The notes beneath the pieces are model-generated. The model did not search any database and was not told the DNA's origin. It saw nothing but the letters and a program-made list of their open reading frames with translations. From a virus: a stretch of DNA of 64,000 nucleotides. How positions within the stretch are numbered: position 1 is the stretch's first letter; each line of letters starts with the position of its first letter. Of this stretch, positions 59,530 through 59,621 are shown one piece after another. A program made the position numbers and the translations under genes. The stretch is taken from positions 20,656 through 84,655 of IMG/VR virus record IMGVR_UViG_3300021963_000083. One strand, given 5' to 3'.

Positions 59530-59557
59530 GGGCGCGATAAATGATATTATGTTAAAT
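59530..59557 (+). other. dif-like XerCD site 1
   Basis: GGGCGCGATAA-ATGATA-TTATGTTAAAT (E. coli dif GGTGCGCATAA-TGTATA-TTATGTTAAAT). Confidence 0.8.
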
Positions 59558-59572
59558 GAAAAAACGTATTGG

Positions 59573-59585
59573 AATCAATCACTTA
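59573..59585 (+). promoter_or_regulatory. Consensus IHF site between the two dif-like sites
   Basis: AATCAA-TCAC-TTA = WATCAANNNNTTR with upstream A-tract. Confidence 0.7.
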
Positions 59586-59593
59586 GGGCGGCT

Positions 59594-59621
59594 GGGGCTG
59601 ATAAATGGCGTTATGTTAAAT
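59594..59621 (+). other. dif-like XerCD site 2
   Basis: GGGGCTGATAA-ATGGCG-TTATGTTAAAT. Confidence 0.75.

Follow-up and report, generated by a model that had tools for sequence, protein, structure and literature searches.

A 92-bp module at positions 59530-59621 of a 64,000-nucleotide stretch of viral DNA carries two sites of the dif type, the kind of site used by the host recombinases XerC and XerD, set in direct repeat around a predicted binding site for integration host factor (IHF). The stretch, referred to here as the window, comprises bases 20656-84655 of the 84,655-bp IMG/VR record IMGVR_UViG_3300021963_000083 (G000), which is classed as linear and 81% complete. The sites match natural Xer sites in sequence, their arrangement is conserved with a fixed geometry in related phages and again in an unrelated group of giant phages, and no phage recombinase is detectable. 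From these comparisons we infer that host proteins dock on the module in cis: host XerC/XerD and IHF probably bind it, and a full recombination system resembling res, which we put forward as a tentative reading, could be built on this binding.

The preliminary description of this DNA, made from its letters alone, had reported two 28-bp sites in direct repeat 64 bp apart, a perfect XerD arm in each of them and a consensus IHF site with an A-tract in the gap, and all of this was confirmed. The parts of the module are the following:

59530-59557, plus strand: dif-type core site 1, with left arm GGGCGCGATAA, spacer ATGATA and right arm TTATGTTAAAT
59559-59564, plus strand: A6 tract, separated by 8 nt from the IHF box downstream of it, kept in the related contig L055 and, as A5, in the related contig L065
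59573-59585, plus strand: IHF consensus box AATCAATCACTTA, in the 36-bp gap at offset 43 of the 92-bp module
59594-59621, plus strand: dif-type core site 2, with left arm GGGGCTGATAA, spacer ATGGCG and right arm TTATGTTAAAT

Both sites are 28 bp long and lie 64 bp apart from start to start, which leaves a gap of 36 bp, and in the repeat search the two appear as family D17, a direct repeat of 31 nt with 81% identity at a spacing of 64. The right arm TTATGTTAAAT is identical at 11/11 positions in both sites to the XerD arm of Escherichia coli K12 dif, as given in the excerpted text of Carnoy and Roten (2009; PMC2731167). It has three exact copies in the window, namely the two sites and a copy at 27753 on the minus strand, which lacks a left arm and is missing from the complete relative G006. 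The left arms share 6/11 positions with the XerC arm of E. coli, whose dif may not be that of the host, and their inner part reads GATAA in both sites. The IHF consensus WATCAANNNNTTR is matched three times in the whole window against 4.58 expected from shuffles; one of these matches lies inside the gap and has an A/T tract upstream, which makes it a predicted IHF site.

Relatives were reached via a neighbouring gene, via a promoter motif that does not contain the sites, and via the record of one relative. The pair was found in eight further distinct contigs (L055, L065, L004, L035, L032, L056, L049 and G006); the L004 module recurs identically in L009, L044 and L052, and site 1 of L049 is degenerate. 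In the nine contigs of this group (group 1) the spacing is 64 bp in four, 65 bp in three, 63 bp in one and 62 bp in one. The conservation that the preliminary description proposed to look for thus holds in eight related contigs at 62-65 bp, but it does not reach T5 or the closest cultured relative by terminase, Vibrio phage X1, where a search allowing up to 2 mismatches gave nothing above the level of controls. The spacer is 6 bp long in all 18 group-1 sites, the inner left arm reads ATAA or ATAT in 17/18, and the right arm is exact in 11/18, the others having one or two changes. The consensus of 17 sites from the nine contigs is.gg.cyGATAA A.g.tR TTATGTTaAAT, with the information concentrated in GATAA and TTATGTT.AAT and near zero in the flanks and at spacer positions 2-5. 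Such a low-information centre between conserved arms is the profile expected for a two-arm protein site with a free centre. The XerC-like arm GGG..GATAA of the preliminary description stands only in its inner half: GATAA is conserved, weakly preceded by ..G.CY, and the GGG is not. Likewise, the two spacers share ATG and differ in ATA versus GCG in the window, as had been noted, but this is not a pattern in the relatives. There, the spacer of site 1 is A[AT]GATA in 5/9 modules, the spacers of site 2 are more variable, and the two spacers of a module differ from each other in 9/9. The IHF consensus at offset 43 is also present in L055, L065 and L004 and is intact in four of the seven complete modules tested. 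Judged by these comparisons, together with an unrelated phage group of the same geometry (below), the arrangement is under selection and is not due to chance.

IMG/VR was additionally scanned for two exact right arms 59-69 bp apart, a search blind to left arms and IHF boxes. It returned 24 contigs, nine of which are unrelated repeats, while the other 15 form one group with 11 distinct 92-mers (group 2); one record of this group measures 116.7 kb at an estimated completeness of 52% and hence belongs to a giant phage. The group-2 module consists of TGTTCTTATAT AAGATA TTATGTTAAAT, a 36-bp gap and AAGACATATAA CTGATA TTATGTTAAAT, or near variants of these, always at 64 bp. Its left arms have TATAT or TATAA, its spacers are 6 bp long in 22/22 sites, the spacer of site 1 is AAGATA or AATATA in all modules, and the two spacers differ in 11/11 distinct modules. 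The IHF consensus lies at module offset 43 in 14/15 contigs, exactly as in the window, and two to seven more perfect IHF boxes are found within 150 bp on either side. No translated similarity was found between the 24 scan loci and the window. The whole records G000 and G001, the latter from an unrelated giant phage, share five proteins, which are the endolysin (57% identical; window 51527-52717, minus strand, Peptidase_M15 and GH19), ferredoxin-like and S-adenosylmethionine-decarboxylase-like auxiliary proteins, SbcC and a fibre tip. None of the five adjoins the module or has a DNA-binding annotation; the endolysin, the fibre tip and the auxiliary proteins hint that the hosts of the two phages are related. 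In the group-2 records searched there was no tyrosine recombinase and no protein of the T5 A2 family, and the group-2 module had no match among cultured phages. The same motif and geometry thus occur in phages with no candidate binder in common, which makes a host factor used by both the simplest common binder. One of the nine unrelated contigs, the 66-kb L276 of IMG/VR, shows an origin-like arrangement, in which two perfect DnaA boxes are surrounded, around 2326-2403, by four or more ATTATGTTAA(A/G) repeats whose left arms are not of the dif type.

The inner left arm can be compared with natural dif sites. GATAA is the inner XerC arm listed for both chromosomes of Burkholderia mallei, which have different spacers, and in real dif sites the inner arms and the XerD arm are the best conserved parts (Carnoy and Roten, 2009; PMC2731167, in the part excerpted). 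The pattern GATAA-NN-GATA-TTATGTTAAAT was found in 79 stretches of species-representative genomes, against about one by chance on our own estimate, and is single-copy in 5/5 genomes checked. It takes lineage-consistent forms, namely ATGTCCGATAA CAGATA in Acidobacteriaceae, TTGTCCGATAA TTGATA in Bacteroidales and TAGAATGATAA TAGATA in Sphingomonadales, and the ..G.CY that precedes GATAA in the phages agrees with natural arms such as ATGTCCGATAA. GATAA is therefore a natural form of the arm, because it is present in Burkholderia dif as well as in the 79 lineage-consistent genome sites. Among 401 sampled Pseudomonadota genomes no close direct pair of dif-type sites was found. Ten of them (G102, G122, G146, G062, G094, G050, G038, G206, G190 and G059) have two dif-type sites in inverted orientation, 63-175 bp apart from start to start (nine within 63-96 bp), with left arms facing and spacers often different; these may be attP-like hairpins or integrated Xer elements.

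Outside IMG/VR, the lytic coliphage rV5 (NC_011041, about 105135-105162) carries GGTGCGCATAA TAGGTA TTATGTTAAAT, whose two arms both agree fully with E. coli dif. This site lies between gp158 and gp159 in a gap of 2.6 kb that is free of genes, and a Fur-box-like sequence follows it. A cultured virulent phage with an apparently host-matched Xer site thus exists. BLAST of the module region against cultured phages gave nothing at 1e-5 and, at E up to 1, two chance-level matches to Synechococcus phages. Plasmids gave marginal matches only (E about 0.9), one of which is a Xer-type site of Acinetobacter pittii plasmids, GCTGCGTATAA GAGATT TTATGTTAAAT. A Yersinia match of the region was discarded as plain AT-rich DNA.

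If host proteins do dock here, XerD would occupy each right arm TTATGTTAAAT and XerC each left arm, with GATAA as a natural variant of the XerC arm. IHF would bend the 36-bp gap and bring the two cores side by side in antiparallel orientation, as in a tyrosine-recombinase synapse; in tetramers of the Cre and Xer type the synapsed sites are antiparallel. The locked XerCD-IHF loop imagined in the preliminary description would thus be geometrically plausible. Site 1, with its conserved spacer, could be the crossover core, and the other core an accessory site that fixes geometry and selectivity. It is the conserved spacer of site 1, set against the more variable spacers of site 2, that favours this res-like reading. 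The host enzyme would then recombine copies of the phage genome, either to monomerise or to cyclise them, independently of FtsK, and mutual deletion of the two cores would be prevented by their differing spacers. Because the spacers always differ, the usual homology rule predicts no deletion of the 64 bp between the cores. Contigs from three runs (X1, X4 and X7; none is listed for X3) span the pair intact, which is consistent with such a block by spacer mismatch. Processing of concatemers or of terminal repeats by the module, also proposed in the preliminary description, is a live possibility.

Several observations weigh against recombination, or even against docking of XerC/XerD, at the module. 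No recombinant joint was seen in the assembled contigs, where rare forms are invisible: among the 15 joints examined, out of 16, none was the 64-bp deletion looked for in this connection. All runs consist of assembled contigs, in which depth, termini and rare recombinants are unreadable, and nothing was drawn from a joint of 59506 to 59646 in run X1, one side of which has 22 letters and may stem from a relative similar to L050. No terminal repeat was mapped; the relative G006 (98,999 bp, labelled linear) has ends (L293, L296) that overlap by about 123 nt after a poly-G start, which shows only that its assembly is closed, with the break inside the dif pair. The domain DUF3653 (PF12375), which we take to be the XafT-like XerD activator of TLCphi-type integrative mobile elements exploiting Xer (IMEX), was found in 0/5 records of 20-89% completeness, so that no known Xer activator was detected in the records searched. 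The IHF consensus is broken in L035, L032, G006 and L056, and the outer left arm is weakly conserved throughout. L050 has no pair, although its promoter context is the same and its neighbouring gene is 88% identical. In L010 (7380-7400), site 2 has lost precisely its right arm through an 11-nt deletion relative to L065 (2585-2610), be it a natural variant or an error of assembly. The pair is therefore dispensable in some relatives.

The most specific objection concerns position 8 of the right arm, which is position 25 of dif. In group 1 it is A/A in six genomes, T/T in two and C/C in one, and in 9/9 genomes it is the same in both sites. Such concerted change points to gene conversion between the sites or to a lineage-specific binder, and it fits these as well as it fits XerD. 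In dif itself A25 is highly conserved and positions 23-24 are variable (Carnoy and Roten, 2009; PMC2731167, in the part excerpted). In the 401 Pseudomonadota genomes, 123 of which match ATAA-N6-TTATGTTNAAT, nearly all matches with dif-like spacers have A, and matches with a non-A position 25 are about as frequent as those of the reversed-pattern control. Moreover, the first spacer base is A in 18/18 group-1 sites against 3/79 natural sites.

The surroundings of the module bear on the alternatives and contain the following features:

59409-59437, plus strand: sigma70-type promoter, 12/12 matches, directed rightwards into the module
59471-59499, minus strand: sigma70-type promoter, 11/12 matches, directed leftwards, face to face with the promoter at 59409 (inverted repeat I2)
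59624-59662, plus strand: two palindromic repeats, GTGATACGATATATCATCAC and ATGATATGTTATATCAT, iteron- or operator-like
59673-59696, plus strand: 24-mer TTATTGATAATGATTCGCAATAGC, Fur-box-like, followed by a hairpin CGCAATAGC-AGC-GCTATTGCG that extends to 59708
59750-59778, minus strand: sigma70-type promoter, 12/12 matches, directed leftwards across the module

The module lies in a gene-free stretch dense in promoters, with 14 promoter-like sites in 59000-61300 against 3.7 +/- 2.0 in shuffles. Within 59264-60870 sigma70-type promoters are dense on both strands, several of them with no gene to transcribe and some in face-to-face pairs. The palindromic repeats after the pair are present in one to three copies in relatives, and L050, the relative that has no pair, shows at about 2290-2360 three exact 22-bp tandem copies of an ATGATAT-GTT-ATATCAT palindrome, candidate iterons or operators. 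The 24-mer TTATTGATAATGNNTCNCAATAGC, presumably Fur-box-like by the consensus that we assume, follows the pair in the window, brackets it in G006 (34-57 and 202-225) and is found there also at 98528. Two other identities of the module were rejected, since a 23-codon frame from 59556 has a start that is not kept in L065 or L004, and Rfam gave no match at the module.

By its gene content the phage is a distant T5-like phage with no evidence of the T5 two-step transfer machinery. Its large terminase has a best identity of 48%, to Vibrio phages of the family Demerecviridae, and the window also codes for a DnaB-type helicase, a DNA polymerase, an SbcC-like protein, a ribonucleotide reductase, a portal protein and major tail proteins. 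A homologue of dmp at 56310-56792 belongs to the PHROG family of T5 dmp (E 3e-26; T5 dmp itself 1e-56), and T5 A2 has a strong homologue in the record immediately beyond the window (G000:C1:18473-18814, E 1e-27). Two 103-aa paralogues, at 57097-57405 and 60064-60372, flank the module region; they share 282 nt at 74% DNA identity, and both match the T5 A2 family weakly (E 5e-4). A1 (phrog_1745) was not detected in G000 or in the circularly closed relative G006, although the same search was positive in T5, twice, and in Vibrio phage X1. In the phage records searched, neither a tyrosine recombinase or integrase (PF00589) nor ParB_N or DUF3653 was detected, and no lysogeny or partition gene was found; the absence of an integrase stated in the preliminary description is thereby upheld by profile PF00589. 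Just right of the module region, 62062-62694 codes for a pentapeptide-repeat protein, a class of proteins among which known DNA mimics occur. Parts of the stretch are present in 20 of the 24 listed public runs, from 13 studies, with long near-identical contigs in marine, estuary, freshwater and lake runs, of which the marine one may represent the source sample.

The main rival of the res-like reading is binding alone. XerD, either by itself or together with XerC, would form with IHF a stable loop that does not recombine, and this would serve as a roadblock or insulator between convergent promoters, or as an unloading point for SMC (structural maintenance of chromosomes) complexes as in Bacillus. 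We regard this as unlikely, though much in the module would suit it. Cooperation in cis is suggested by the fixed phasing of 64 bp and by the bend at the centre. The module has a rightward promoter on one side and leftward promoters on the other, with 12/12 matches each and no terminator-like site found between them, and the always-different spacers would block exchange between the cores. Additionally, XerD is described as binding extra loci independently of XerC in order to unload SMC; these loci consist of a XerD arm and the five innermost bases of a XerD site, and, so far as the excerpted text goes, this was shown only in Firmicutes (Miele et al., 2022; PMC9226527), which counts against transferring it to the phages. 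The left inner 5-mer is never CATAA, our own reading of a XerD half-site from the E. coli arm (0/18 in group 1, 0/22 in group 2). Finally, pure binding does not require a particular spacer, and yet A[AT]GATA at site 1 is kept in two unrelated phage groups.

Less likely still is an operator or iteron for a DNA-binding protein of the phage itself, such as the A2-like 103-aa paralogues, with a likeness to dif that is coincidental or ancestral. The variation of position 8 resembles co-evolution with a lineage-specific binder, related ATGTTATAT palindromes follow the pair, the 103-aa neighbour has its weak match to the A2 family, and L276 shows that TTATGTTAAAT can be repeated with non-dif left arms around DnaA boxes. 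However, it is very unlikely that chance would produce a XerD arm matching at 11/11 positions together with ATAA at exactly 6 bp in two groups without a candidate binder in common. The candidate does not follow the pair either: the family phrog_1725 was absent from the four group-2 records searched, and the A2-like gene is present in 37 loci, many of them incomplete, of which eight have the pair, while the closest copy (88%, in L050) has none.

It could also be that the module is an attP of the IMEX type, with which the phage, either as such or in a carrier state, would integrate at host dif via XerCD, the two cores fitting different dif spacers. We consider this improbable. Host-type sites without an integrase would be expected of such an element, spacers ending in GATA match many natural dif spacers, and CTXphi has two Xer sites per element. 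But known IMEX are small and the sites of CTXphi are inverted, not direct. Different dif spacers do exist on the chromosomes of one host, as in Burkholderia (Carnoy and Roten, 2009; PMC2731167, in the part excerpted), and yet the paired sites in the 401 bacterial genomes were all inverted, and no lysogeny or partition gene was found in the phage records searched.

A neutral relic, such as a host dif once taken up or the trace left by a Xer-mobilised element, is very improbable: the loss or damage of the pair in the close relatives L050 and L010 would agree with it, but the arms are conserved while flanks and spacers diverge beyond alignment, and the spacing is kept within 62-65 bp in nine contigs and is always 64 bp in the 15 of the other group. 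The injection-stop signal (iss) of the T5 type and the FtsK stop point, both raised in the preliminary description, are scarcely credible and already weakly refuted: the promoter-dense, gene-poor stretch with a dmp homologue 2.7 kb upstream and A2-like genes on both sides does recall the untranslated part of the T5 left terminal repeat, but T5 has no dif-like site, A1 was not detected, the strong A2 homologue lies elsewhere, the same module is present in giant phages, DnaA boxes are not enriched (5 in the window against 5.7 expected, none in 59300-59900 and hence none in the module), and only four E. coli-type KOPS (FtsK-orienting polar sequences), of a consensus that may not be the host's, occur in 84.6 kb, too few for any polarity. 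The T5 iss is characterised by paired DnaA boxes and by large inverted repeats; in the excerpted text IHF is mentioned in passing and Xer does not appear (Davison, bioRxiv 10.1101/866236).

Docking of host XerC/XerD and IHF on the module is thus the probable reading, and its consequences would reach beyond one phage. At least two unrelated large lytic phage lineages might carry a self-synapsing XerCD-IHF module, for res-like recombination independent of FtsK or as an SMC-type eviction or blocking point; stated in this generality the proposal is possible but doubtful. Were it true, virulent phages would in either case be putting the Xer system to a new use. If host XerC/XerD act on the module, virulent phages would borrow the enzyme of chromosome resolution for their own genomes or would manage host DNA machines with it, which would mean a new host dependency and a natural architecture that controls Xer recombination without FtsK. 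The module would also offer a compact substrate of 92 bp. Mobile DNA is a familiar carrier of Xer sites (cer, psi, pdif, IMEX). To our knowledge, they have been recognised on plasmids and on small integrating phages, but not as conserved, paired and IHF-phased modules on large phages without lysogeny genes. In the literature searched we found no description of dif-type sites, single or paired, in virulent tailed phages, and the statement that the arrangement is undescribed in T5-like phages can be maintained.

Compared with known systems, the module resembles the T5 iss in lying in a gene-poor, repeat-rich stretch near genes of the pre-early type and in having boxes for host proteins; however, DnaA-box pairs and large inverted repeats belong to T5, which in turn has no dif-like site. 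It shares with rV5 that a virulent phage carries a Xer-type site in a gap between genes, with no recombinase annotated at the rV5 site, but rV5 has a single site, and the 351 bp examined contain neither a second copy nor an IHF box in central position. CTXphi, a small filamentous phage without an integrase, has two inverted Xer sites that act as a folded single strand. The likeness of its attP to the module lies in the two Xer sites of an integrase-free phage, and the difference in their orientation, since the module has direct repeats on a tailed phage of roughly 100 kb. The XerD sites of Bacillus and Staphylococcus likewise combine a bona fide XerD arm with a degenerate centre and conserve only the innermost bases of the other arm; in the module, by contrast, the fifth innermost left base is G or T and never C, and the sites are paired around IHF on phage DNA.

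The closest model for each single site is chromosomal dif, with which it shares the 11-6-11 build, the exact XerD arm, the GATAA inner arm and the peak of conservation in the inner arms and the XerD arm. Unlike dif, the module is carried by an apparently lytic phage as a direct pair 64 bp apart around an IHF box, its outer left arm is weak, its first spacer base is always A and its position 25 varies between lineages. For the arrangement as a whole the nearest models are res of the Tn3-family resolvases, the internal recombination site (IRS) of Tn4430 TnpI, and cer and psi with ArgR/ArcA and PepA, all of which combine a crossover core with accessory sites. The module is similar in having a core and extra sites in cis at a fixed spacing, which would impose geometry and selectivity, and it would differ from all of them in that its accessory element is a second full Xer core together with IHF.

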